Virus record (IMG/VR): IMGVR_UViG_3300035498_001325
Source: an uncultured virus (IMG/VR IMGVR_UViG_3300035498_001325)
Taxonomy: Duplodnaviria; Heunggongvirae; Uroviricota; Caudoviricetes
Strand: one strand, 5' to 3'
DNA length: 64,000 nt
Part shown: positions 1 through 64,000 of the stretch, one piece after another
Numbering within the stretch: the first letter of the stretch is position 1
How the letters are laid out: each line of letters opens with the position of its first letter
Translations under genes and position numbers: made by a program
Notes under the pieces: generated by a model
Databases searched by the model: none
Told to the model about the DNA's origin: nothing
The model's input: only the letters and a program-made list of their open reading frames with translations

Positions 1-86
1 AAGATTTTGATAAGGGAATAAGAACACCTAAATGGTATGAAGCTGATGAATTAAACGAAGATGATTATATCGCTGAATTAGAATAA
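1..86 (+). CDS. 3' end of a gene entering the window; probable N-terminal half (IntN) of a split intein, likely the end of dnaE-N
   Basis: Frame from base 3 reads DFDKGIRTPKWYEADELNEDDYIAELE-stop. W-x-x-A-x-E-L-x-x-x-D-x-I resembles the motif closing intein N-lobes; it is acidic and followed by a terminator. Confidence 0.55.
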   Translation, partial: DFDKGIRTPKWYEADELNEDDYIAELE

Positions 87-6440: not shown

Positions 6441-6459
6441 TGTTTCACCTCCTATATTT

Positions 6460-6525
6460 ATTATATCACATATATTTTATATTGTCAAACTGTTTATTGA
6501 CAAATAACGAAAAATATAGTATAAT
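6460..6525. promoter_or_regulatory. Back-to-back divergent sigma-A promoters
   Basis: Minus 6460-6488 and plus 6497-6525, both TTGACA-17-TATAAT. Confidence 0.8.
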
Positions 6526-6550
6526 CTTTTTAAGAGGTGGTGAATAATAT

Positions 6551-7642
6551 ATGTATATGAAAGCAAATTATGGAATGTCAAATTTTATGGAAGCTTATTT
6601 GAAAACTACTGATGATATTGTTAATAATAGAATGTTTTTTAAAGAAAAATGTATGGACATATTTACTCTTATAAACTATTCTCCAATAATATTGGAGGAT
6701 ATATATGATTGGTTAATTAATTCTTGTTTTAATACTATATGCTTCACAAGAAATGGACATACTTGTTTTATAAGTGATTTTTTTAGCTTGATACAAAAAA
6801 GAATAGAAATAGTTAATAGGCATCCAACAAATTTAAGGTTTGATTGTAATGATAATAAAAAAGAAAAAGCTCAAAAATCTTTAGATATTATCAACTCTAA
6901 ATGTTTTAAAATAGTAGGTAAGAGCTTTAAACAAATATTGAACGATTGCATTAAAAATATGCCATTAGATAAACATTCGGATATGAGTGTTTATTATTTA
7001 TTAGCTAAAATAGGAACAACTTATATAAATAAAGAAAATATTATAAAGCTGTTTGATAGAATGGTTATTTTAGAAGAAGAAAAGAAATATGCTTATTCTA
7101 ACGGACAATTCACTTTATTGGAAGATTTTTTAGTTGTTAATCTTATTGATTACTTAAAAAACTATCCTGAATACATTATTCCTTATTTAAAACACCATAA
7201 TATTGAATTTGGTAATTATATTAGAACAAGCCCTGATAAGTTTAATGTTTTATCTTTTGTTGCAATGCTGCAAACTAATAAAGAAATGTATGAGATATTT
7301 TCAATTAAGAGCTGTCAAACTGCTATTTTGTTTAAATTGGCTAATATGAAGATAGAAGATGTGATAAAACATAAAAAATATATAAATATACTTCCTATTG
7401 ATGAAAAACACTTAATAGATAACCAAATAAAAAAAGGAAAAGCGGATGTTTTAATTAGATATATCTTATTACAGGATAATATTACATTAGAAAGAGAAAC
7501 TCAGCTTTTAAATTTGGTTGCTAAATATAAGAAAATGTTTACGGAAAAAAATGTTCAATATATAATAGATAATTATGAATGTAAATATGATGAAAACAAA
7601 GACCTATTAAATGGATATTTGTTAGCAAGTAAATTGAGGTAG
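6551..7642 (+). CDS. Hypothetical protein, paralogue of 7752..8906
   Basis: Near-identical last ~70 aa to the next gene; ends DLLNGYLLASKLR. Confidence 0.8.
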   Translation: MYMKANYGMSNFMEAYLKTTDDIVNNRMFFKEKCMDIFTLINYSPIILEDIYDWLINSCFNTICFTRNGHTCFISDFFSLIQKRIEIVNRHPTNLRFDCNDNKKEKAQKSLDIINSKCFKIVGKSFKQILNDCIKNMPLDKHSDMSVYYLLAKIGTTYINKENIIKLFDRMVILEEEKKYAYSNGQFTLLEDFLVVNLIDYLKNYPEYIIPYLKHHNIEFGNYIRTSPDKFNVLSFVAMLQTNKEMYEIFSIKSCQTAILFKLANMKIEDVIKHKKYINILPIDEKHLIDNQIKKGKADVLIRYILLQDNITLERETQLLNLVAKYKKMFTEKNVQYIIDNYECKYDENKDLLNGYLLASKLR

Positions 7643-7692
7643 AATAAATCTACCTCTTTTTTATAAAGATAAATTTTAATACTAAAAAATTC

Positions 7693-7721
7693 TTGACAAA
7701 CAATAAAAAGTATGATATAAT
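7693..7721 (+). promoter_or_regulatory. Sigma-A type promoter
   Basis: TTGACA-17-TATAAT with TG. Confidence 0.8.
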
Positions 7722-7751
7722 ATAATTGTAAACAAAGAAAGGAGGAAAATT

Positions 7752-8906
7752 ATGAAAGGCTTTGAAAATTTTTCTATTGATTTTAGAGTAAAAAACAATA
7801 AAAAAGAAATGGAAAAAGTTAAGAAGTTTCTTGAAGAACCAAAGCATAGAGATTTTGAAAAAACTCTTTTAGAAAAATATAACATAATAGATATTTTTCA
7901 ACTTATAGAATGTGCTAATGGTTCTTTAAAAAGATATTATAAAAAACTTTTATCTACTCAACTTAGTATTTTATTTCAGATGGGTTCTAAAGAAGTAGTT
8001 CCTAAAATATATTATATCCCATCAATAACGATAAGTAATACTTTTAATTCAATACTCGATAATGTCAGATGTATTACTACATACAAACCAACCTCTAAAA
8101 AATATATTAGAGCAAAATTAAAGATGCAGGAGTTTGACAAAAAATGTATTAAAGTTTTTGGTAGAGATTTCAAAGAGATACTTAATGATTGTATTAAAGA
8201 AACTTTAAACAAATACAGCGGAATTTTCTATGGTAGAGTTTTGAAATTTAGTATCATTCTTACTTATTTCAGTTCAGACTTTTTAACACTTAAAAATATG
8301 AGGGGAATGTTAAGATTTATTCATCGTCATCAGATTGGCAATCCTTCATATTTGTTTAACAGATATTTCTCAATAAATAAGTTAATACAATGCTATATTA
8401 CAGCCCCTTCTTATATGACAGAATATTGTTCAATGAGTTATGAATTTAACGATGAGTATATTAAATATCTTATTCGTTGTCTAAAAGACAAAAATACGGT
8501 AAATTCTATAATGAATTTAAGTAACATTTCATTAAGAACAAAACAAGTATTGAAAAGTTATGATTTTTGGGAAACGATAAAATATAAAAGCAAATTGCCT
8601 GAATTTTCTAAACTTACTTTTAAAAACAATGTTGAAGAACTTTATCGTCAAATGAATTTTGATGAAAAACAATTAATAATTGGCAATATGAAAAAAGGTA
8701 ATGCTGATGTTTTGGTTAGTTATATATCTTTACAAGATAATATTTCTTTAGAAAAAGAAAAAGAACTTTTAAATTTGATTATTAAGTATAAAAAAATGTT
8801 TACAGAAGAAAATGTTCAATATATAGTAGATAATTATAATTGTAAATATGAAGAAAACAAAGATTTGTTGAATGGGTATTTGTTTGCAAGTAAATTAAAT
8901 TCCTGA
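7752..8906 (+). CDS. Hypothetical protein, paralogue of 6551..7642
   Basis: SD aaggagg; ends DLLNGYLFASKLNS. Confidence 0.8.
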   Translation: MKGFENFSIDFRVKNNKKEMEKVKKFLEEPKHRDFEKTLLEKYNIIDIFQLIECANGSLKRYYKKLLSTQLSILFQMGSKEVVPKIYYIPSITISNTFNSILDNVRCITTYKPTSKKYIRAKLKMQEFDKKCIKVFGRDFKEILNDCIKETLNKYSGIFYGRVLKFSIILTYFSSDFLTLKNMRGMLRFIHRHQIGNPSYLFNRYFSINKLIQCYITAPSYMTEYCSMSYEFNDEYIKYLIRCLKDKNTVNSIMNLSNISLRTKQVLKSYDFWETIKYKSKLPEFSKLTFKNNVEELYRQMNFDEKQLIIGNMKKGNADVLVSYISLQDNISLEKEKELLNLIIKYKKMFTEENVQYIVDNYNCKYEENKDLLNGYLFASKLNS

Positions 8907-9030
8907 TGAATTAAATATTTATTTTTAAAAGACAGAGTAAAATCTGTCTTTTTTATTGCAAAAAATTAAAAAAAATATTTTTTCTTTATATATAAAGGCA
9001 AATATACAAAAAAGGAGAGTGAAAGAACAA

Positions 9031-9144
9031 ATGAAGTTTACAAGAATTGTAAGAAAAAAATACCAACAGTATAAAGGTAAGGTTTATGATTTAACTGTTG
9101 AAGATAGTCATTCTTACAATATTGATAATTTAGTGGTTCATAAT
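9031..9144 (+). mobile_element. C-terminal half (IntC, 38 aa) of a naturally split intein
   Basis: SD aaggag then MKFTRIVRKK..VYDLTVEDSHSY..VVHN, followed by +1 Ser of the DnaE GRG-S-x-AGS motif. Confidence 0.9.
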
Positions 9145-12100
9145 TCAGGTGCAGGTTCTTTAGTTTGTTATGCAACAGATATAACTAAAGTTGACCCTAT
9201 TGAATATGACCTAATTTTTGAGCGTTTCCTCAATAAGGACAGAGGAAAGCTGCCTAAACAATATTGGGCATTAAAAGTGAACTTAAAAAGGTGTGCTTAA
9301 TAATATTTAAGTGCTAACGGTAAAAGTTAAATAAGACTACCTGTTGAAGCCTTACAAGGAGATAATAGGTATATGATTTGTAATCATAGGTAGAATATAC
9401 TTCTACAGACGAAATAGCTTTCTAAGAGAGTCTAAGGTGCTTTAAAAGCATAGCTGATAATACCGTGTCTTTAATAAGATGTAACGACTATCCAATTATT
9501 TGGAGTACCATTATAAAATGGGAAGTGCTTTTATACAAAATTATTTATGAAAAATTGTTTTGTAAAGATATAGTCTAATGTTATAGAAAACTATAAATGA
9601 TAATGGATATTGATGCAGATTTCTGTATTTACAATGGTGATAAGGTTTTTGAATACTTGAATAATAAGTATGGTAAAAATCACTGTTGTAATATTATTAC
9701 TTTCCAAAGATTACAAACTAAAGCAATAATAAAAGATTTAGCAAGAGCTTTGGAAGTAGATTTTAGTGAAGTAAATCAATTTACAGCATCTATACCTGAT
9801 AAGATTGATGATAAAGATGTACATATAAAAGATTTAGTTGATAATCCTCAATTTTCTTGGTTTTTTAATAAATATCCACTTATTAAGAAACACGCTTTAA
9901 AATTAGAGGGAATACCTAAATCAACATCTCAGCATCCTGCTGGTATTGGTGTTGTACCTTGTGAAATAACTGATTTAGTACCTGTTGTTCCTGCAAAGGA
10001 AACAGCAAGTGGTATGAAAACATATTTATCACAGTTTGAAAAAGATTTCGTGGTCCGTTATATAAGAAATTATATAAATGAATCCTGTGAACTGCTGGAA
10101 GCCTAAGTATATAATTATCATATATATGGTAATCAGCAACCAAGACAAATGGTAACATTTGTAAGGTTCAGAGACTAAGTTATGGAGTCCAATTTGAGAA
10201 TTTGTTTAAAGATTGGATGGTAAAAACTCAAGAGTGCAGGACACCTAAGTATAAATATTAAATCATTTATATATGGTGATGATATAGTCCGATACTCTTA
10301 TGAAAATAGGAGAGTATAAGATAAAGAGCTTATACATAACAATAATGCAAACTGAACAAATGGGTGTAAACATAACTGCACCCGTAAAAGTGGGTTATAT
10401 GCTGGAAACTGCTTAGAGCCTTTATGCACCTACAATATTTTGTGTTTATTGTAGTCGAAACAGTTAAAGGATTGCACAATCAGCAGGCACGATAAGGTCC
10501 GCCTCAGAGACTATGAGAATATCTCAGGTATATAATGGTGACGTTATATATCAACCCCACTAAATAGAATTTATTTCTATGAATGATATAGTCCAGACTG
10601 AATATGAATTAACATATTGTAATTCTATGTGGTAATGTCACACATAGGATAATGGCTGAAAAGTCCAGATAACAAGCAGAAATGTCTTGTTTTTATCGTA
10701 AAAACATATATAATAAAATTATGATAAAATAATGATAAAAAAGGGTCAAGCTAGATGTATTAAAACTCGCAACGTGCAGCCAACTTAGATTTATGGTTGA
10801 TAAGATAAATCAAAAATATAATTTAAACTTAACAGAAGATAAAATACCATTGGATGACAAAAAAACTTGGGATTTAATTTCAAGTGGTAAAACATTAGGT
10901 GTATTTCAGTTTGCTTCTCCATTAGGAATAAGCACTGTAAGAAAAATGCACCCTGCAAATATTGAAGAATTAGCAGCAGCAACATCATTCATTAGACCTG
11001 GTTCATCAGGACTTGACAACTATATGAAAGGTAAAGATGATGCTACAAAAGTTGCTAAAACCGATGAAAGATTAGATAAATGCTTAAAGTCCACTTATGG
11101 GGCTATCGTTTTCCAAGAACAGATAATGATGCTTATATCTGAATTACTTGGTGTTTCATTTGGTCAAGCAGATATATATAGAAGAGCATTAGAAAAACCT
11201 AACAAAGGAAAAAATGTAAAGATAGTAAAAGAGTTCAACGAAGCAGTTGTAGAAAAAGCAACTCAATTAGGATTTTCTCCAAAGGTTGCTGAGAATGTTA
11301 AAAATTCTATTATTGAAAATTCAGGTTATTCATTTAATAAATGTTTAGCAGGCAGTGAAATAATTTATGATTATGATGTAAATAATTACAAATTATTAGA
11401 AAATAAAAAAATAACCATTAAGGAAATGTACTTAATTAAGAATGATATGGATTATGCAAAAGAGCATTATCAGATAACATTAAGAAAATTATATAATACT
11501 TATGGTTATGGTTTTGCTTTATCTATGAATGAAGATGGTAAATTGATAAAAAATAAAATTATTGATATAACATTTTCAGGTAAACTTCCTGTTTATAATG
11601 TAGAAACAGAAACAGGTGAAAAGGTTAAGTGTACAATGAATCATAAATTCCCTACACCGAATGGAAATAAGTTGTTAAGTGAATTAACTATTGGTGATAA
11701 ATTATATGTAAATGATAATTATACTACTAAACTTTCAAAAATAAAGAGTATTACTTATTTACACGAAGAAGATACTTATAATATTGAAATGGCAGACCCA
11801 TACCATAATTTATTGATGAATGATGGTATAGTTGTTTGTAATAGCCACGCTGTATGTTATTCAGTTATTTCATATCAAACAGCTTGGATGAAAATGAATT
11901 ATCCTATTGTTTTCTATTCAATTATGCTTGATGATTGTAGTGAAAGTGATTTTACATTATTCTTACAAGAAGCAAAAGCAAGAGGTATTGAAATAGGTTC
12001 TCCTGATATAAATAAAAGTAAATATTTATGTCAGATAGAGGGTGACGATACAATCAGAATAGGACTTAAATCAATAAAGGGCGTTGGTCCTGCTGCTGTA

Positions 12101-13000
12101 AAATGTATTGAAGAATTACAACCATTTGATTCATTAAACGATTTTATGAATAAAAAGACAGCTGCCGTAAATAAAAAAGTATTAGAAGCTTTAGTAAATA
12201 TTGGAGCTTTAAATTCTTTAGGTGTTGAAATTGATGAAGAAGATAAAGTGTTATATAAAAATACTAAAATAGAGGAAAATAAGATATATTTTGACAGAGA
12301 ACAGTTAAAAATCTTTTTTAAACACTATATATTGGAAACAGAGAAGAAATCAATTCCTAATTATTTAATACCAAAATCTAATTTTAAGGGTAAAATACTT
12401 AATCAATTTGAAATGGTAGAAGAAGATGGTGGATTTGTTATTCCCGAAGATAAACTTTCTCTTGTGGAAGTAGATTTAACAGAAGAAGAAAAAGCAAAAT
12501 ACAAAACGAGAAAGAAACCTAAAGGAGAGTTTAAAGATTTAACTAAATCAGTAAAAATATCTCCATTTAAAAAAGTATTAATGACTTATGCTAATGAATT
12601 AGATAATATCAAAGAAGATAAAATTGCAAATTATATTAATGAGTTTGAAGCACTTGGATATTCATTTATAGAACATCCTTGTCAGAAATATATTAATAAA
12701 ATTTATGATAAGAATAATCCTAAATCAACTTTTAAAGATATAAAAGATGGTTCACTTTGTCTTACCTGTGGTTTTATAAATGGTATTGAAGAAAAGCTTA
12801 CTAAGAATAAGAAAACATATTATGTTGTAAACTTAGTAACACCAGTTGATATTGTTCAATTACAGTTATGGGGTAATCAATACGAAAATTTAAAAGACAA
12901 AATTCAGCTTAAAAAGTTAATTATTGTCAGAGGTATTAAAGGATATGGCAGAATATCTGTCGAAGCAATAGAACCTGTAAAAGTAGGTTCAAAAAAGTAA
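9031..13000 (+). CDS. dnaE: DNA polymerase III alpha subunit, C-terminal half: join(9031..9255,9606..10046,10348..10367,10744..13000), 980-aa precursor with N-terminal IntC and an internal intein
   Basis: Splicing restores SGAGSLVCY, FERFLN, LP|DIDADF, SQHPAG, QFEKD|QTEQMGV|VKLDVL, GVFQF, VFQEQIM, GYSFNK|SHAVCY and a C-terminal OB fold. Confidence 0.92.
9256..9605 (+). ncRNA. Group I intron dnaE-I1, 350 nt, no ORF
   Basis: Exon ends in U; P1 tgcct/gggca with U.G; core gctaacggt, aataccgtg, gtaacgacta, aagatatagtcta; ends in G; restores PDID. Confidence 0.9.
10047..10347 (+). ncRNA. Group I intron dnaE-I2, 301 nt, no ORF
   Basis: Core actgctggaagc, aatcagcaac, ttcagagactaa, gatgatatagtcc; U before and G at the end; in-frame join KD|QTE. 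Confidence 0.85.
10368..10743 (+). ncRNA. Group I intron dnaE-I3, 376 nt, no ORF
   Basis: P1 gggtgt/gcaccc; core atgctggaaac, aatcagcagg, tcagagactat, aatgatatagtcc; join GT|G gives GVVKLD. Confidence 0.88.
11342..11842 (+). mobile_element. Cis mini-intein in DnaE, 167 aa, no endonuclease
   Basis: FNK|CLAGSE...KCTMNHKF...TYNIEM...VVCN|SHA. Confidence 0.9.
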
Positions 13001-13040
13001 CCAAATTAAAAAATCATTTAATAAAGGAAGTGACTAACAA

Positions 13041-14015
13041 TTGATAGAAGCAACAGAATATCAATTTACAAACGTATTTTCAGAAAGACCAATAGAATTT
13101 AATGAGAATGGTCTTGCAACAGTTTCAGTTGGTTTTGATAAGAGTTTAAAAGAACCAAGACCATATAACAAATATAGTATAGCAGCTGAAAAAGCTATAT
13201 TAGATAGAATTTATAGAAGATATACAGGAGAGGTTCAGACAGTTTCATTTTTAGCTGATTTCCATTGTCCTGATTTCGATGCTAATTTCTTTCATACATA
13301 TATCAAGAATAATAGAGATAAGAACCTTGATTTGATTATTTTAGGTGGCGATGTTTTTGATTGTGGTAAGTATAGTTCTAAATTCGTTAATAAAGATACT
13401 GCTTCAATTGCAGATGAAAAGAGAAGTACAGAATATGTATTTAGCACATTAAGAAAAAGTTTTCCTAATACAAAAATTTTATATATAATTGGTAATCACG
13501 AAAAAAGAATTGATACTTACATCTATAAGGGATTAGGTGATGTAACTAATGATACGATTAGTACGGGTACAAAGTTTATAGATGAACTTTGCAATAAGTA
13601 TCAGATAGAGTTCTTAGTTTCAAATGTAATTCAGATTGGTGATGTTATTTTCACACACGGTACTAATTATAATAAGAACCCTTTAATAAGTGCAGAAAAG
13701 GACGTAGAACATTATAAGTCATTAAGACATATATTACCTAATGAAAACTTTAAGGCTTTAATTATGGGGCATACACATCACGCAGCTAACTTCGCAGCTA
13801 CTTCTAATAATTCAGAAATATTTATAGCTGAATCAGGTTGTATGTGCCACGATATTCCTCAATATCATTTTGATAGTAAGTGTAGCACTGCTTGGAAGAA
13901 TGGTTATGCAACTATTAGATTAAATAGAAAAGGCGAATTTTTAGTAAATGAATCAAGGGTTTATATGGCAAACAGAAGTGAATTAGATAACCCTGCTGAT
14001 TATTGTATAGATTAA
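13041..14015 (+). CDS. Calcineurin-like metallophosphoesterase
   Basis: DFH, GDVFD, GNHE, THG, GHTH motifs. Confidence 0.85.
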   Translation: MIEATEYQFTNVFSERPIEFNENGLATVSVGFDKSLKEPRPYNKYSIAAEKAILDRIYRRYTGEVQTVSFLADFHCPDFDANFFHTYIKNNRDKNLDLIILGGDVFDCGKYSSKFVNKDTASIADEKRSTEYVFSTLRKSFPNTKILYIIGNHEKRIDTYIYKGLGDVTNDTISTGTKFIDELCNKYQIEFLVSNVIQIGDVIFTHGTNYNKNPLISAEKDVEHYKSLRHILPNENFKALIMGHTHHAANFAATSNNSEIFIAESGCMCHDIPQYHFDSKCSTAWKNGYATIRLNRKGEFLVNESRVYMANRSELDNPADYCID

Positions 14016-30883: not shown

Positions 30884-31183
30884 GTGGAAACGCTTATAAA
30901 TTTAAATGATGAAAACAATAAAATAAAAAATCATTCAATCAATGAAGCTAACTGCTACGTAATAGACAATATGGGAAATTTATTATCACGAATAAGCCGT
31001 AATAAAGGATTTGTCTATATACGCAAAAAGAAAGCTTCTTTTTTTAATAATAAACCATTTATTATTAAATTAGATAAAGTTGTTGAGAATCCAACGAATG
31101 ATTTAACTAATGATGAAATTGAATTTATCAATTCAATAGTTGTCCGTAAAATTAAATTAAATGGAGGAAATTTAAATGGATAA
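30884..31183 (+). CDS. Stand-alone RRXRR/PLMP-like domain protein
   Basis: YVIDNMGNLLSR..IRKKKA..KPFIIKL resembles the IscB N-terminal pattern; overlaps the recA start. Confidence 0.55.
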   Translation: METLINLNDENNKIKNHSINEANCYVIDNMGNLLSRISRNKGFVYIRKKKASFFNNKPFIIKLDKVVENPTNDLTNDEIEFINSIVVRKIKLNGGNLNG

Positions 31184-34034
31184 GAAAGCAAAGTTAAGAG
31201 CTATGGCAAATGCCATTAAGAGCTTAGAAAAGGCAACAAAGAAAACAGGCGTAGCTTATAGATTAGGTGATAAGCCTGTTGAAAAGATTGAAGTAATACC
31301 AACTGGTGCTTTACCTTTGGATATAGCACTTGGCTGTGGCGGTTAATAAATAGCCTCATTTGTTTGGAAACAAACACTTGATAACTGGGTGAATTGCTAA
31401 GAACTCTATAAAAACGCCCATTATATTTTATAGACAATCAGCAACTAAGTTATTTTCAGCACTAAATAAAATATTCCTCCATTATTAAATGTTTTATTTA
31501 TCGGAAATAAAAAGCTCAACGACTAACTGATGAGTAGTGCTAACAATAAATCAGACACGAGTGCCCAGCACTGTTATATATAGTATAACACATATAAGAA
31601 TGGCAACTTATATGCCTAACGTAATAACGAGGGTGAAGATATAGTCTAAACTGAATATGAATTAACATATTGTAGTATTAAATAATATCTATTTAATATA
31701 ATGTAGGTGACTACCAGAATCATAGGATAAAGAGCCTATGAGTTAATATTTTTTGTATTCTAAAGGGCGTATAATTGAATTATTCGGTGCAGAATCTAGC
31801 GGAAAAACACTTATGGCTTCTAAAGCTATTGCAGAATGTCAAAAGCAAGATGGAATCTGTGCTATGATTGATATGGAGTAATTGCTCCCTTTAAAGAGTA
31901 ATCTTTATCGAAAAATATTTTTAATTGTCGGGGAAGTCTTAATTATTTTTACATACTAACTTGTCTTAGAAATAAGATAGGGGCAATGAGTAATTTCAAA
32001 GGTATAGTAATAAGTGTAAAAATAAAGATTATCGGACGCATCAAATCATCTAAATATAACCTCCATTATATATGATGAATGTTCAACGACTATTCTTGAA
32101 AAAGACAATGGAAATTTGTCAATAGAAGTAGGGCTTAAGTAAGCAGGTGAAATCCCTTTAAATCGAAATTGAATACTCCTATTTTTAATAGGAAGATGAT
32201 ATAGTCTATCCTTTATAGTGATATAAAGAAATATTAAAAAGAATTTTTTAATATTATTATAATTTAACGAATTGTAATTTAATAAAAAGCACGCATTTGA
32301 CCCATCATTCGCTGCAAAATTAGGTGTAAATATTGATGATTTATTTGTAAGTCAACCAAGTCATTTACAGGAATGTTTTGTAGTAATTGATAAATTTATT
32401 GATGCAGGTTGCGATTTAATCGTATTAGATAGTATTGCAACATTAGTCCCAAAGGAAGAACTTGAAGGCGAAGTAGGTAAACAGACTATTGGTCTTGTTG
32501 CAAGATATATGGGTCAGTTTTTAAGAAGAATTGGTCCAAAGTTAGATGAAAACAATTCTACTTTAATCTGTATCAATCAAACAAGAGATAATATTGGTGT
32601 TATGTATGGAGACCCAACAACAACCCCAGGCGGTGAACAAATAGCATAATAAATTATTTTATTAAATATTCTAATAATGCTTTGCCCCCTGTATAAAAAA
32701 TTCCGTAAATTGCTGGAAGTTTGTTAAAGTATATATGCTACAACATAAAACGAAAGTTTAAGTGTGATATGCTTAAAAAATATATATGTTGAACAATCAG
32801 CAGCTATGCCATAACAGAAATGTTAGGGAGAAGTTCAACGACTAGGAGTGAACCTAAAGAATATAAAAAATTCTATGGTAATAAAATCTCCCACGAAAAC
32901 GGGACACTGCTAATTATTAAAAAATCACTTAATAATTAGTTAAAGATATAGTCTAAAAATCCTTTATAAAAGGTTTATAGGATAAAGAGCCTATTGTAAT
33001 TGTTTTGAAAGCATTAAAGTTCTATAGTTCTATTAGATTACAGGTTGCAAGAGCTTCTACTCTTGATGTGATTGACAAGAACGGTGATTTAATTCAAAGA
33101 GGTATAAGAGTTACTGTTAAAAAGAATAAGGTTGAGAAAAACAGCCTCGCTATGTAGTAATATATAGCTGTAAATTAGGTGAACCAGTAATGGGTGTGTA
33201 TATATAGAATTTATTTTCTATATATGTGCTAACGGTAGAAGTGATATATATAAATAAGCTTCGTAAGAGATACTAAGGTGTTTAATTTTTAAACATAGCT
33301 GTTAATACCGTGCCAAGTTTAAGTAGAAATACTTTTAAGAGGTGTAACGACTAATTTTAAAATCTAAGTATAAAATAATATATATGATTTTAAAAACACG
33401 AGTGCCTAATACGATTATTATAGATAATCCTTATATAAAAATATATAAGCCGAACGTAATAACGAGGGTAAAGAGATAGTCTGAACTGCCTTTGAATTGA
33501 CAAGGGATAGTTGTTATATTTAGAATGGGAATATAATAAATGAGGAAACTCACAGAATTATGGGATAAAGAGCCTGTAAGATAACAACATTGTGGACTTC
33601 CATTCAAGAAAGCAGAATTTCAAGTATACCTTGATGGTAGAGAAGCTACCAAGGAATTAACAGACGATATTGCTAATATTGCTTTAAATATGGGATTAAT
33701 TCCTAAGTATGATGCTAAAGGTCAACTTTCTCAGACGGGTAGAAATTATAAATTAACTTATACTGTACCTGAAACAGGTGAAGTAGAAGAATTATCAGTT
33801 AAGAAGAAAGATGATGTAAGGATTGCACTTAAAGATTGTCCTAATATGCAGAAATATTTATTAAGTATTATCCGTGGTGAAATTGAAGCACCTGAAAATA
33901 CTATACCAAATGAAGATATGGATTCAGAAATGTCTGATGAAGATTTTGAAAAGATGATGAAAGAAGATAATTATGGTGTAGATGACGAAGATGGTGCAGA
34001 AGAATTAGAAAGTTCTTCATGGGATGATATGTAA
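31176..34034 (+). CDS. recA: RecA recombinase: join(31176..31343,31756..31878,32290..32634,33008..33132,33593..34034), about 400 aa
   Basis: Spliced product has [70 protein letters not shown]. Confidence 0.93.
31344..31755 (+). ncRNA. Group I intron recA-I1, 412 nt, no ORF
   Basis: P1 ggt/gcc; core aattgcta, aatcagcaac, tcaacgactaa, gaagatatagtcta; terminal G. Confidence 0.9.
31879..32289 (+). ncRNA. Group I intron recA-I2, about 411 nt, junction ambiguous
   Basis: Core ttcaacgactat and gatgatatagtcta; P1 ggagt/gctcc; in-frame stop at 31879. Confidence 0.8.
32635..33007 (+). ncRNA. Group I intron recA-I3, 373 nt, no ORF
   Basis: Core aattgctggaag, aatcagcagc, ttcaacgactag, aagatatagtcta; U before and G at the end. 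Confidence 0.9.
33133..33592 (+). ncRNA. Group I intron recA-I4, 460 nt, no ORF
   Basis: P1 aggt/gcct; core gctaacggt, aataccgtg, gtaacgactaa, aagagatagtct; join GT|T. Confidence 0.88.
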
Positions 34035-35776: not shown

Positions 35777-36691
35777 ATGTCAGTGGATTTTACAAAATAT
35801 AAAAGAGGAAGTATTTGGTTTTATAGAGAACCACAGTGGATTGAACAGCAAAGGGGCGTACAGAGCCATTCAAGACCTTGTGTGATTATCTCTAATGATA
35901 ATTTTAACTCTTATTCCCCTGTCGTTAATGTACTAATGTTGACTACTAATCTTGATAAAGATAACGAATATCATATAAATATTTATAAAAATGGATATAA
36001 TACAAGATTGAGAGATAGTGCTATATTAGTCGAACAAATTAAAACAATACCTATTTCAGATTTAGGTGAATATTTTGGTATGTTGTCTGATGATATTATG
36101 AAAGAAGTTGATAGAAAACTTATAAAACATTTAAACATTGAAAATACTCCACATATTGCGATTGAAGAATTAGGTCAATTTATGGGTAAGTATAAAGAAA
36201 CTATTGATACTTATAATCAAATTAGCTCAAACTCTTTTATGAATGAATTAAAAGACCATATAAGCGACTTTATAAGAAGTAAGGGGAGAGCAGAAAGACC
36301 AAGATTAACCTCTGAAAATATTGTAAAAAATAGTATTGCAAATAAAGTAATCAATGATTCTAATTCAGATAACAATTCTAATGATGGTATTTCTAATAAT
36401 TCTAAAGAAAATGTTTTTAATAATTTCCCTAAGAATGGAATAATTATTGATGAAAACGGAATAAAGAATAATCTTGAAAAAAATCTTGAAAAAAGTATTG
36501 ATTTAAATAAGCCTATTGAAAGTACTATTGAAAAAATAAAAGAAAAAAGGCGTAAGAAATGGACTTCCGAAGAAATGAATTTTTTTATTGATAATTACGA
36601 TAATAAAGAACTACTTATGAATAAATATAATCTTACAAGACAGCAGGTAGTTAAAACTTATTTTTACATTAAATCAAAGGTTGCAAATTAA
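35777..36691 (+). CDS. PemK/MazF-family endoribonuclease domain with a long C-terminal extension
   Basis: KRGSIW..Q..RPCVIISND..N..LTT..EQIKTI. Confidence 0.8.
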   Translation: MSVDFTKYKRGSIWFYREPQWIEQQRGVQSHSRPCVIISNDNFNSYSPVVNVLMLTTNLDKDNEYHINIYKNGYNTRLRDSAILVEQIKTIPISDLGEYFGMLSDDIMKEVDRKLIKHLNIENTPHIAIEELGQFMGKYKETIDTYNQISSNSFMNELKDHISDFIRSKGRAERPRLTSENIVKNSIANKVINDSNSDNNSNDGISNNSKENVFNNFPKNGIIIDENGIKNNLEKNLEKSIDLNKPIESTIEKIKEKRRKKWTSEEMNFFIDNYDNKELLMNKYNLTRQQVVKTYFYIKSKVAN

Positions 36692-57151: not shown

Positions 57152-57300
57152 GTGACATACTCCCCCACCTACGCTACGCTAAGAGGTGGGAGCTTCTGAT
57201 TCAACAGACGTTTCCCACTCAATACATCCAGTGATGTAAGTATCAATGGGCTAACCCCGTGTGTCCCACGGTTCTTTTATACTAAGATAATGCTATTCGC
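57152..57300 (-). ncRNA. Probable TnpB omega/reRNA scaffold
   Basis: GC-richer structured stretch between the tnpB stop and the right end; position inferred from known TnpB systems. Confidence 0.55.
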
Positions 57301-58385
57301 ATACCCTCGTTTTTGATATTTATACTTGCATTTACATCCCTGTCGTGATGTGTTCCACATTGAGGGCAATCCCACGCTCTGATTGACAAATTCTTTGTAT
57401 CGGGGTTTTTATATCCGCAACAAGAACAAGTTTGAGAACTTGCAAAAAACTTGTCTATCTTAATCAGTTGTTTGCCTTGTTCTTCCAACTTGTATTTCAA
57501 AAATGTTGTAAACATTCCCCAACCATTATCCGCTACAGACTTTCCAAAGTTCAACGCTTGTGACATTGCTTTCATATCAAGATTTTCAATACAAACACAA
57601 TCGTAATTTTTAGCTAACTTGTTTGATAACTTATGTAAGAAATCTTTCCTTTGGTTAGTTACCTTTTCAAATAGTCTATCAACTTTTAGACGTTGTTTGT
57701 TACGATTATTACTACCCTTAACACACTTAGATAGTTTTCGTTGTTCTTTTGCAAGTCTTTTCTGTACTTGTCTGTAGTACCTTGGACACTCTGCAAAAGT
57801 GTTATTATTAGCAACGTATAACTCTTTCATTGAGAAATCAAAACCTAGGAAAGTTGTGGGTTCTATTGCTTGTACTTGGCTTTCGTACTCGCATAAGATA
57901 CTTACATAATACTTTCCACTTGGAGTTTGGCTAATCGTTGCGGATTTTATTTTGTAGTCATTTGGAATTTGCCTATGTACCTTGACTTTAACTAAATCCT
58001 TTAGTTTAGGTAATTTTAATAGGTTGTTTTCTAAAGTGATACTGCCTTTTTGATTGTTAGTAGTATAACTTTTTCTATTCTTATGCTTAGATTTGAACTT
58101 AGGAAATCCCACTTTTGGATTGGTGAAAAAACTCTTGAACGCTTTTTGCAAGTTCATCTGAACATTAGAAAGTGCTAAACTATCAACGTCTTTGAGCCAT
58201 TCAAATTCGGTCTTATACTGTGCAGGTGTATTATTTAGAGTTTGCTTATGCTCTTTGTAGTAGTCTATCTTATCTAATAACATCTTATTCCAAATAAACC
58301 TAACACATCCAAAACATTGAGCAAAGAATACTCTCTGTTCATCGTTTGGATATATTCTAAACTTATAGGCTTTATTACGTTTCAT
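57282..58385 (-). CDS. tnpB: RNA-guided endonuclease TnpB (start revised to 58385)
   Basis: AYKFRIYP, LGFDF, CIENL, SQTCSCCG, CPQCG, DRDVNASINI; SD ggagg. Confidence 0.93.
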   Translation of the reverse strand: MKRNKAYKFRIYPNDEQRVFFAQCFGCVRFIWNKMLLDKIDYYKEHKQTLNNTPAQYKTEFEWLKDVDSLALSNVQMNLQKAFKSFFTNPKVGFPKFKSKHKNRKSYTTNNQKGSITLENNLLKLPKLKDLVKVKVHRQIPNDYKIKSATISQTPSGKYYVSILCEYESQVQAIEPTTFLGFDFSMKELYVANNNTFAECPRYYRQVQKRLAKEQRKLSKCVKGSNNRNKQRLKVDRLFEKVTNQRKDFLHKLSNKLAKNYDCVCIENLDMKAMSQALNFGKSVADNGWGMFTTFLKYKLEEQGKQLIKIDKFFASSQTCSCCGYKNPDTKNLSIRAWDCPQCGTHHDRDVNASINIKNEGMRIALS

Positions 58386-58519
58386 TTTTTCTCCTCCAAT
58401 CCTAAAATTTATGATATTATTATAATACTTTACACTTAATTTGTCAATAGTGAAACGCAATTCTTCCCCCACTTTAGAAGTGGGGGAATTCTTGCTGAAA
58501 TTAGTTAAATAAATTTTTC

Positions 58520-58548
58520 TTGACAAATAATAAAATAAGTAATATAAT
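58520..58548 (+). promoter_or_regulatory. Sigma-A type promoter
   Basis: TTGACA-17-TATAAT. Confidence 0.75.
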
Positions 58549-62560: not shown

Positions 62561-64000
62561 ATGGAAACAAAATTAAAAGTAACATTATTAGATTACACAC
62601 CTGAACCTGAAAAGTTAATTGCAGCAGCAGCTAAATTGTGTTATAGTTCATCTGACATTGAACACTTATATGAAAACCAAACTCCTGAGAAAGTAGAAAG
62701 TTTTTTAAATAGATTGGTAAATATAGGACATTGTTTTGATGAAGAAACAGAAGTTCTTACTTCTACTGGATTTAAACCATGGAAAGATATAACAGAAAAC
62801 GACCTTATTGGAGCTATTAATCCCACAACGATTGAATTTGAAGGTTTTGAAAAACCAATTCAATTATTTAATTATGAAATAGATGATGATATGATTGAAT
62901 TTAATCATAAATTGTTAAGTTTAAAGGTTACGACAGGACATAATTTATTTTGTTCAATATCAAATACTGCTAAAAATAGAGTAAATCCTACATTTAAATT
63001 GATAAGAGCAGACGAAACATTAAGAACAGGTAAGGAAGTTTGGGAATCTCCATTAAGGATGTTAAGATGTGCTAACAATAAAAACAACGAAACCAATGAT
63101 AGTGATATTATCTTCGCATTATATGGTTTTTTTATTGGTGATGGAAGTACTACAACCAATCATTCAATTATTTTTCATTTAAAGAAAAAACGTAAAATAG
63201 ACTATTTAAAAAATTTATGTGAGAAATTAAATTTAAAGTTAGATATATTAAAGAATGATAAATATAGTATAAAAAACTTAAAGGATGATTTTAAAGAAAT
63301 GTTTTATAATGAAAACAAAGATAAAACATTTCCTAATTCTTTTTTTACAATGACTAAAAATCAATTTGATTATTTTTTAGAAGGGTTACATAATTCTGAT
63401 GGTAATTATATGGATTATATACGATATCATAAAAGTATATATTATTTCACAATGAGCAAAGAATTAAAAGATAAAATACAAGCTTTATGTGCAATAAACG
63501 GTAGAGCTACTTCTGTAAAAGTTAGAAAAACAGGTTGTTATGTAATCAATATAAACAGGAACAAAGATAATACCCCTATGTTTAATGATTCAAGAAATAA
63601 AAAAGCTCATGCACAAAAAGTACATTATAAAGGGAACGTATATTGTGCCACTATATCAACAGGGCTTTTAATGATAAGAAGAAATGGATTTGTTTGTTTA
63701 TGTGGAAATTGCTCGCCAATGGAACACATTTCATTTACATTTGGTATAGAAGGTGTTAGTAGAACTTTAACGCATCAATTAGTTAGACATAGAATCGGAT
63801 GTTCCTTCTCGCAAAAATCCCAGAGGTATGTGTCTGAGGAACAATTTGAATATATTATGCCTGAACAAATAAAAGATAATTACCATACAAAACAAATTTA
63901 TACTACTTTAATGCACGATATACAGCAGAAGTATAATGATATGGTGGATATTTTATTATATCAAAAAATAATGGATAACAATAAAGATTGGAAAGAATAT
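62561..64000 (+). CDS. thyX: FAD-dependent thymidylate synthase, intein-containing, runs off the window (not in ORF track)
   Basis: AAKLCY, GH|CSPMEH, GVSR..THQLVRHRIGCSFSQKSQRY. Confidence 0.92.
   Translation, partial: METKLKVTLLDYTPEPEKLIAAAAKLCYSSSDIEHLYENQTPEKVESFLNRLVNIGHCFDEETEVLTSTGFKPWKDITENDLIGAINPTTIEFEGFEKPIQLFNYEIDDDMIEFNHKLLSLKVTTGHNLFCSISNTAKNRVNPTFKLIRADETLRTGKEVWESPLRMLRCANNKNNETNDSDIIFALYGFFIGDGSTTTNHSIIFHLKKKRKIDYLKNLCEKLNLKLDILKNDKYSIKNLKDDFKEMFYNENKDKTFPNSFFTMTKNQFDYFLEGLHNSDGNYMDYIRYHKSIYYFTMSKELKDKIQALCAINGRATSVKVRKTGCYVININRNKDNTPMFNDSRNKKAHAQKVHYKGNVYCATISTGLLMIRRNGFVCLCGNCSPMEHISFTFGIEGVSRTLTHQLVRHRIGCSFSQKSQRYVSEEQFEYIMPEQIKDNYHTKQIYTTLMHDIQQKYNDMVDILLYQKIMDNNKDWKEY
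62732..63709 (+). mobile_element. Intein in ThyX with LAGLIDADG endonuclease, 326 aa
   Basis: CFDEETEVLT, VTTGHNL, YGFFIGDGS, FLEGLHNSDG, VYCAT..CGN|C. Confidence 0.9.

Follow-up and report, generated by a model that had tools for sequence, protein, structure and literature searches.

How can a DNA polymerase gene that lies in several separate coding pieces, one of them only 20 nucleotides (nt) long, still specify a complete enzyme? The question is raised by positions 9031-13000 of a 64,000-nt stretch of DNA (hereafter the window) from an uncultured virus of the Caudoviricetes (IMG/VR record IMGVR_UViG_3300035498_001325), the plus strand of which carries, according to Pfam and NCBIfam profiles, the C-terminal half of a DnaE-type DNA polymerase III alpha. 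We consider it very probable that this is the replicative polymerase of a large phage, and that this half of its gene is interrupted by three group I introns (I1, I2 and I3, in 5' to 3' order) and two inteins, one excised in cis and one split between two genes. As such, the gene is a dense case of a kind of fragmentation already described in phages.

Joined by script, the four exons (9031-9255, 9606-10046, 10348-10367 and 10744-13000; Table 1) yield 2943 nt and a single 980-codon frame that opens with ATG at 9031 and contains no internal stop. A first-pass annotation, made from the letters alone, had proposed this three-intron layout, and all six boundary bases agree with it: T at 9255, 10046 and 10367 before the introns, and G at 9605, 10347 and 10743 at their ends. 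Its statement that I1 parts a proline from DID is likewise borne out by the residues on either side of that intron. The palm (PF07733), finger (PF17657) and HhH (PF14579) families all exceed their cut-offs and keep the expected order along the joined product, and the separate gene pieces do not reach the full-length NCBIfam equivalog cut-offs. A PHP domain was seen only in the N-terminal half of a relative, where its 25.0 bits stay under the cut-off of 26.4. Among the open reading frames (ORFs) of at least 100 amino acids (aa) in the 64-kb window there was no second DnaE-type gene, and a promoter and terminator scan of 8700-13200 gave no excess of promoters (27 against 32.2 in shuffled sequence).

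The exon joins are fixed by the tiling of protein profiles over the pieces and by relatives that lack introns, evidence that does not depend on RNA structure. The NCBIfam DnaE model NF004226 runs up to position 366 in the N-terminal half of a relative, covers 366-402 in exon 1 and 403-545 in exon 2, and resumes at position 554 on the first residue of exon 4, which also matches Pfam DNA_pol3_finger and HHH_6. With Pfam DNA_pol3_alpha, the last residue of exon 1 falls on profile position 102, and exon 2 takes up without a gap at 103 with its first residue and runs to 245. Between exons 2 and 4, 7-8 profile positions are absent, and these are covered once the micro-exon is read on. In a relative designated L003, in which the micro-exon is contiguous with exon 2 in the DNA, the match is longer by just these 7-8 positions (Pfam 103-253, NF004226 403-552). 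All three intron sites are empty in a 101-kb IMG/VR contig, L090, which has an uninterrupted 960-aa ORF with an identical number of bases at each junction; residues 1-976 of the joined product align with its residues 2-960 at 57% identity. A further relative, L094 (51% identity), is likewise uninterrupted at all three sites, and dnaE of SPbeta-like staphylococcal phages aligns without a gap across the micro-exon. The continuous 980-codon frame and the contiguous sequence of L003 and L090 thus uphold the earlier proposal that a 20-nt exon restores the frame just before the motif of the third catalytic Asp.

Table 1. Elements of the interrupted polymerase gene and their positions in the window.
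Feature	Position	Strand	Description
IntN tail	3..86	+	final 27 codons plus stop codon of the N-terminal half of the polymerase; remainder upstream of the window
Split-intein IntC	9031..9144	+	38 aa; ends VVHN, then Ser as first extein residue
Exon 1	9031..9255	+	IntC and 37 extein codons; last residues LP
Intron I1	9256..9605	+	predicted group I, 350 nt, no ORF, P7.1/P7.2
Exon 2	9606..10046	+	147 codons; begins DIDADF with both catalytic Asp
Intron I2	10047..10347	+	predicted group I, 301 nt, no ORF; RF00028 72.9 bits
Micro-exon	10348..10367	+	20 nt; QTEQMG and first two bases of a Val codon
Intron I3	10368..10743	+	predicted group I, 376 nt, no ORF, terminal G 10743
Exon 4	10744..13000	+	third catalytic Asp motif (VKLD), finger, cis intein, HhH, C-terminal part, stop codon
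Cis mini-intein	11342..11842	+	167 aa; Cys1 to VVCN, then Ser; inside GYSFNK/SH

For I1, P1 comprises 7 base pairs (bp) between 9251-9257 and 9264-9270, with U9255 paired to G9266. Its guide (9266-9270) pairs with the last five bases of exon 1 and lies next to the P10 strand, in which 9259-9265 can form 7 bp with exon bases 9606-9612, as read from the sequence. The core contains P3 (9272-9279 with 9526-9533), P4 (9317-9322 with 9461-9466) and P7 (9486-9490 with 9571-9575). By blastn, the 5' part of I1 was found in dnaE of Enterococcus phage EF1, Mammaliicoccus phages, SPbeta-like staphylococcal phages and Bacillus phage G. The homologues in EF1, the SPbeta-like phages and phage G occupy the same LP/DxD site and each ends in G; in Mammaliicoccus phage phi116 the 5' junction alone was seen. 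Those of EF1, phi116 and phage G contain a homing endonuclease gene. A 25-letter motif from the I1 core occurs at 52 IMG/VR loci, many of them in dnaE and others in other genes, and the guides of family members change with their own exons (UGCCU/GGGCA, UACCU/GGGUA, UGGCU/GGUCA). From an alignment of I1 with 14 ORF-less IMG/VR members (15 sequences), RNAalifold predicted P2, P2.1, P3, P4, P5 extensions, P6 and P7.2, to which the invariant P7 was added as a pseudoknot for testing. With this P3/P7-pseudoknot structure 98.4% of cells pair, and sliding the partner strand lowers the figure to 34-46%; 31 of 57 pairs carry changes on both sides, and none of 500 shuffles reached the covariation score. 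Judged by this strong covariation in sequence alignments, I1 is a predicted group I intron of a widespread phage family that Rfam misses. By their P7.1/P7.2 insertions we take I1-I3 to belong with the IA-type introns of phages, a label assigned by this structural feature rather than by a subgroup-specific model.

I2 is the intron that the Rfam model recognizes outright. It matches RF00028 over model positions 1-253 with the full core from P1 to P9 at 72.9 bits (gathering score 50; E 1.4e-16), and P7 pairs 10173-10177 with 10285-10289. Reading of the sequence shows that U10046 and G10347 delimit the only frame-keeping cut of 301 nt that has both the U and the G. I2 is missing from L003 with exact ends, position 6441 of that contig corresponding to 10046 of the window and its 6442 to 10348. 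It is equally absent from L090, L094, phage G and a 282-nt contig of a public sequencing run, and none was seen in the records of EF1, the SPbeta-like phages, phi116 and phage G. An exact 23-mer from I2 had no match elsewhere in a collection of viral contigs, which leaves the window with the one copy of I2 found, and a scan of metagenome contigs with exon 2 for further close relatives gave 0 of 397 candidate stretches.

In I3, the 9-bp P1 (10360-10368 with 10377-10385) draws on eight bases of the micro-exon and A10368, with U10367 paired to G10378, and folds at -15.2 kcal/mol (z -2.6). P3 joins 10389-10394 to 10556-10561 and P7 joins 10509-10513 to 10589-10593; in the Rfam alignment P3, P4-P6, P7, P7.1, P7.2 and P8 are present, and G10743 is the sole in-frame terminal G. 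The group I core elements noted in the first reading were thus recovered, namely P3 and P7 for I1 and I3 and a full-length RF00028 core with P7 for I2. A scan for an I3 motif returned 24 loci, most of which represent an unrelated terminator-like hairpin and only L069-L074, L077, L081, L085, L086 and L087 of which are introns. Three family members, L072, L086 and L070 (the last an extra intron of the relative), keep the core, and their P1 changes with the respective exon. In the family alignment, 29 of 46 predicted pairs are kept through two-sided changes, a count taken over four members plus I2, which aligns badly and adds broken pairs. Bacillus phage G has an I3 homologue in the same codon phase, directly before VK(F/L)D.

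In phage G (L001, about 7878-12895) the I3 homologue starts after ALGL, and the piece that begins with VKFD lies about 5 kb downstream; seven annotated genes, including one for a NUDIX hydrolase, lie between the two polymerase pieces. Either the intron here is very large, or the polymerase of phage G is split at the RNA level. A candidate helix between exons was also considered, in which 10032-10038 is perfectly complementary to 10348-10354. It is not present in the relative without I2, and 114 of 1703 equally spaced pairs of 30-mer and 20-mer windows (6.7%) match as well, so that we attribute it to chance.

The claim that one cis and one trans intein accompany the introns is supported by IntC, the IntN tail and the cis mini-intein, each detected by profile or tblastn. 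Residues 17-39 of IntC match TIGR01443 (intein_Cterm) at 17.5 bits against a cut-off of 15.6, and positions 120-155 of the Pfam Intein_splicing profile at 25.5 bits, which is under the cut-off of 35.8. The window contains the last 27 codons of the N-terminal part, in which tblastn with the N-half ORF of a relative, L008, found 89% identity over residues 646-672 of that ORF; Cys1 and the end of the extein were read in L008 itself. There, a Cys follows GPGRG, the TIGR01445 (intein_Nterm) match scores 30.0 bits (cut-off 24.5), and the extein runs to NF004226 position 366, exactly where the C-extein of the window resumes. One strand carries both polymerase halves, separated by about 8.9 kb with eight ORFs of at least 100 aa, in none of which an endonuclease domain was recognized. 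In L094 an unsplit intein occupies the split-intein site, and L090 has both IntC and an intein at the site of the cis mini-intein. The mini-intein of the window matches TIGR01445 at 27.0 bits (cut-off 24.5) and Intein_splicing at 32.2, under the cut-off of 35.8, and no endonuclease domain was found within it. The N-terminal half of the relative (L008 1-2016) has a further cis intein upstream of IntN (Intein_splicing 75.1 bits), which ends in VVTHN followed by C.

Taken together, these elements suggest a route from the broken gene to the enzyme. Each ORF-less intron would excise itself from the transcript with guanosine as cofactor, and the 980-aa product would lose the 167-aa mini-intein. The 38-aa IntC would pair with the IntN that ends the N-terminal half, the gene for which ends about 8.9 kb upstream, and protein trans-splicing would join the halves at GPGRG/SGAGS. 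The I2 and I3 ribozymes would use opposite ends of the micro-exon, so that neither would need the other to act before it.

The relatives also indicate how the arrangement may have come about. L003 has the same 20 micro-exon bases and I3, but lacks I2, and carries two introns absent from the window, at 9225/9226 and 11105/11106 (L003 5286-5624 and 9001-9406); the former lies 30 nt upstream of the I1 site and leaves a 30-nt exon. Its I3 is about 2.2 kb long (6462 to about 8640) and includes an antisense 555-aa endonuclease-like ORF with the homing-endonuclease-associated repeat PF18780. An Rfam scan of L003 4800-9600 at E 0.1 gave no match even though this I3 is 94-98% identical to that of the window, which we ascribe to the stricter filters applied to longer input. 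The I1 and I3 sites both hold homologous introns in phage G. We propose that selfish self-splicing elements invaded the polymerase gene repeatedly: I3 would occupy a homing site also used in dnaE of other phages, I2 would have been inserted later 20 nt upstream, where the active site is most conserved, and the micro-exon would be a by-product of these neighbouring insertions. The presence of I2 in one allele and its absence from the other are as expected of a selfish insertion. In support of this, the existence of a relative without I2 that has the same micro-exon and I3 points to a second insertion of recent date and not to a conserved device, and the extra neighbouring introns of L003 argue that short exons are the residue of independent insertions into neighbouring conserved codons.

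Several observations weigh against the layout of three self-splicing introns and two inteins, or limit how far it can be taken. A search with group I models, the check suggested by the first-pass annotation, succeeded for one intron and fell short for two: I2 exceeds the gathering score of 50, but I3, despite a full-length match (model 1-253), reaches only 32.9 bits (E 4.3e-6 in a 2.1-kb search), and I1 gives a partial match of 18.8 bits at 9563-9595 (model 219-251). The I1 structure was derived from the very alignment on which it was tested and is thereby favoured over the slid controls, even if the margin is large. The contigs L002, L003 and L004 from IMG/VR (about 94% DNA identity to the window) do not differ over the gene and are therefore treated as a single relative. 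I2, which has the best core score of the three introns, is weak where it meets its exons: P1 pairs G10044-U10047 with G10052-C10055, that is, three exon pairs (GAU/GUC) and one U-G pair within the intron, shuffled sequence folds at least as well (z 0.43), and only two possible P10 pairs were found. Given the P1 and P10 so modelled, efficient self-splicing of I2 is not assured. Two public sequencing runs were found (shares 0.07 and 0.05), one of them from an RNA library, and the sole contig of that library to bridge the I2 site (X1 record 3, 282 nt) runs unspliced into I3. Finally, the splicing events counted for the whole enzyme are a lower bound, as most of the N-terminal half lies outside the window. 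The 282-nt contig was itself considered as spliced RNA and rejected: it skips 10043-10347 but has GGAA in place, which identifies it as an allele without I2, either DNA of the relative or pre-mRNA.

Some of these points would also fit a decaying gene, in which at least one intron, most likely I2, has lost the ability to splice, which would leave this copy with partial function or none. The P1 of I2, at 3-4 bp, the sub-threshold score of I3, the unspliced contig and the lack of a homing endonuclease ORF in all three introns could be understood in this way. However, the four exons remain in frame over 980 codons with their catalytic motifs intact, the suspected intron has the best ribozyme score, and among the window ORFs of at least 100 aa there is no second DnaE-type gene, so we regard decay as very unlikely. 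Almost no credence attaches to the view that I2, the 20 nt and I3 are removed as one composite intron and that the 20 nt are not an exon. The closeness of I2 and I3 is all that speaks for it, whereas removal of 10047-10743 would shift the frame, in L003 the 20 nt run on from exon 2 as coding sequence within the DnaE profile match, the same 20 positions are uninterrupted in L090, and the P1 of I3 pairs with the last 8 of the 20 bases, with the U-G pair at 10367.

A different reading grants the micro-exon but makes it a regulatory device: the tandem of I2, micro-exon and I3 would impose a splicing order or yield exon-skipped transcripts and so tune the amount of full-length polymerase. A transcript that skips the micro-exon (10046 joined to 10744) would indeed be frameshifted and stop after 14 codons, before the third catalytic Asp, and hence be non-productive. 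In phage SIOphi, the skipping of an exon between adjacent group I introns has been measured, in a study that, in the parts dealing with such introns, proposes that they act as guanosine triphosphate (GTP)-sensing switches (PMC11878797); skipping of the 20-nt micro-exon is conceivable. In the window, however, the two ribozymes draw on different parts of the exon, I3 using 10360-10367 for P1 and I2 at most 10348-10349 for P10, as read from the sequence. The absence of overlap leaves no structural reason for an obligatory order, and the two introns do not compete for the micro-exon, which the earlier annotation had taken to serve both the 3' site of I2 and the P1 of I3. Its further suggestion that order or skipping gates polymerase production found no support either, given that a close relative keeps the micro-exon and I3 and lacks I2; since I2 is missing from this 94% relative as well as from L090, L094 and phage G, the arrangement is not conserved. 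We therefore give the regulatory reading a very low probability. Its more specific form, in which the tandem acts as a kinetic checkpoint and I2, with its 3-bp P1, is slow or is bypassed by joining its 5' site to the 3' site of I3, with the outcome of a tunable mix of full-length and frameshifted mRNA, appears highly improbable; if true, the truncated product, ending 14 codons past exon 2, would keep IntC and could compete for the N-terminal half.

Independent insertion of splicing elements into a functional gene, which we favour, has close parallels. The dnaE introns of EF1, the SPbeta-like phages, phi116 and phage G are homologous to I1, share its LP/DxD site and core motifs, and covary with it in P1 and P9, and phage G also has the I3 homologue at the same codon phase. 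In these Firmicute-phage records the introns number one or two, and the P6 loop of several holds a homing endonuclease ORF, whereas the window has three without ORFs; they annotate the polymerase pieces as separate genes. A multi-intron phage gene with small exons and exon skipping was reportedly described by Landthaler and Shub in 1999 for orf142 of phage Twort. Phages of the Bastillevirinae are described, in the passages concerned, as having several group I introns per gene, small exons and exon skipping, and orf142 is there cited for exon skipping (PMC11878797). The likeness consists in several group I introns within one phage gene; the difference, to the extent that those passages cover it, is that splicing was shown experimentally in family A polymerase, terminase and reductase genes, whereas in the window it is predicted.

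The split intein recalls the 'fractured genes' of Dassa et al. (2009; PMC2677866), which, in the passages on DnaE, include genes broken at an intein into two same-strand ORFs with other genes between them and a further intein present. The window differs from those cases, as there described, by its gap of about 8.9 kb with eight ORFs of at least 100 aa that lack a recognized endonuclease domain, and group I introns inside the fractured DnaE loci are not described in the passages of that study on them. Jumbo gut (Jug) phages, with genomes of 360-402 kb (the contig of the relative has 379 kb), carry a mean of 18.5 group I introns per genome, inteins and DNA polymerase genes split by insertions, and metatranscriptomes supported splicing of 37 of 76 introns, according to the relevant sections of that report (PMC12880540, Sci Adv 2026). 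Very short exons between independently inserted group I introns, needed for the frame, are also known from organelles: a 1-nt exon in placozoan cox1 (PMC5436844) and the 3-nt exon 2 of Agaricus bisporus cox1 (PMC2987802), both, as the sections on these exons state, in mitochondrial genes of eukaryotes and far shorter than the 20 nt of the window. No description of this exact arrangement was found in the literature, and the supplementary tables of PMC12880540 may list it.

Elsewhere in the window, a recA-like gene also lies in pieces, with at least three more RF00028 matches. Its pieces lie at 31176-34034 on the plus strand, with matches at 31334-31667 (52.8 bits), 31868-32228 (25.1 bits) and 32591-32975 (22.1 bits) and a further gap before the last coding piece at 33585; a small exon should lie between the first two matches. 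At 62561-64000 on the plus strand, a ThyX (Thy1) frame that runs off the end of the window has a central LAGLIDADG_3 domain, probably an intein. Directly upstream of the C-terminal polymerase half, two paralogous plus-strand ORFs of no known family (6551-7642 and 7752-8906) share a conserved C-terminal stretch, and a similar ORF occupies this place in L003 (3888-4994). An IS605 OrfB/TnpB-type ORF is on the minus strand at 57285-58526, and the plus strand has, at 35777-36688, an ORF of 304 aa that begins with a PemK/MazF-like N-terminal domain.

Every kind of component of this locus has already been published, namely multi-intron phage genes, small exons, exon skipping, fractured DnaE and intron-rich huge phages, and the locus opens no new question. 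It has practical consequences for annotation: gene callers split the polymerase into at least four 'hypothetical' ORFs and lose the 20-nt exon, and a search with RF00028 at the gathering score recovers a single intron out of three and misses the I1 family, with its 52 IMG/VR loci that have the core motif. The window, L003 and L090 form a natural series of alleles, with and without introns, for homing into neighbouring sites. Five predicted self-splicing elements lie within 4 kb in the C-terminal half alone; the relatives add two intron sites there, for a total of seven element sites, and one more intein in the N-terminal half. The gene thus illustrates the extent to which selfish elements can fragment an essential phage gene that nonetheless stays coding.

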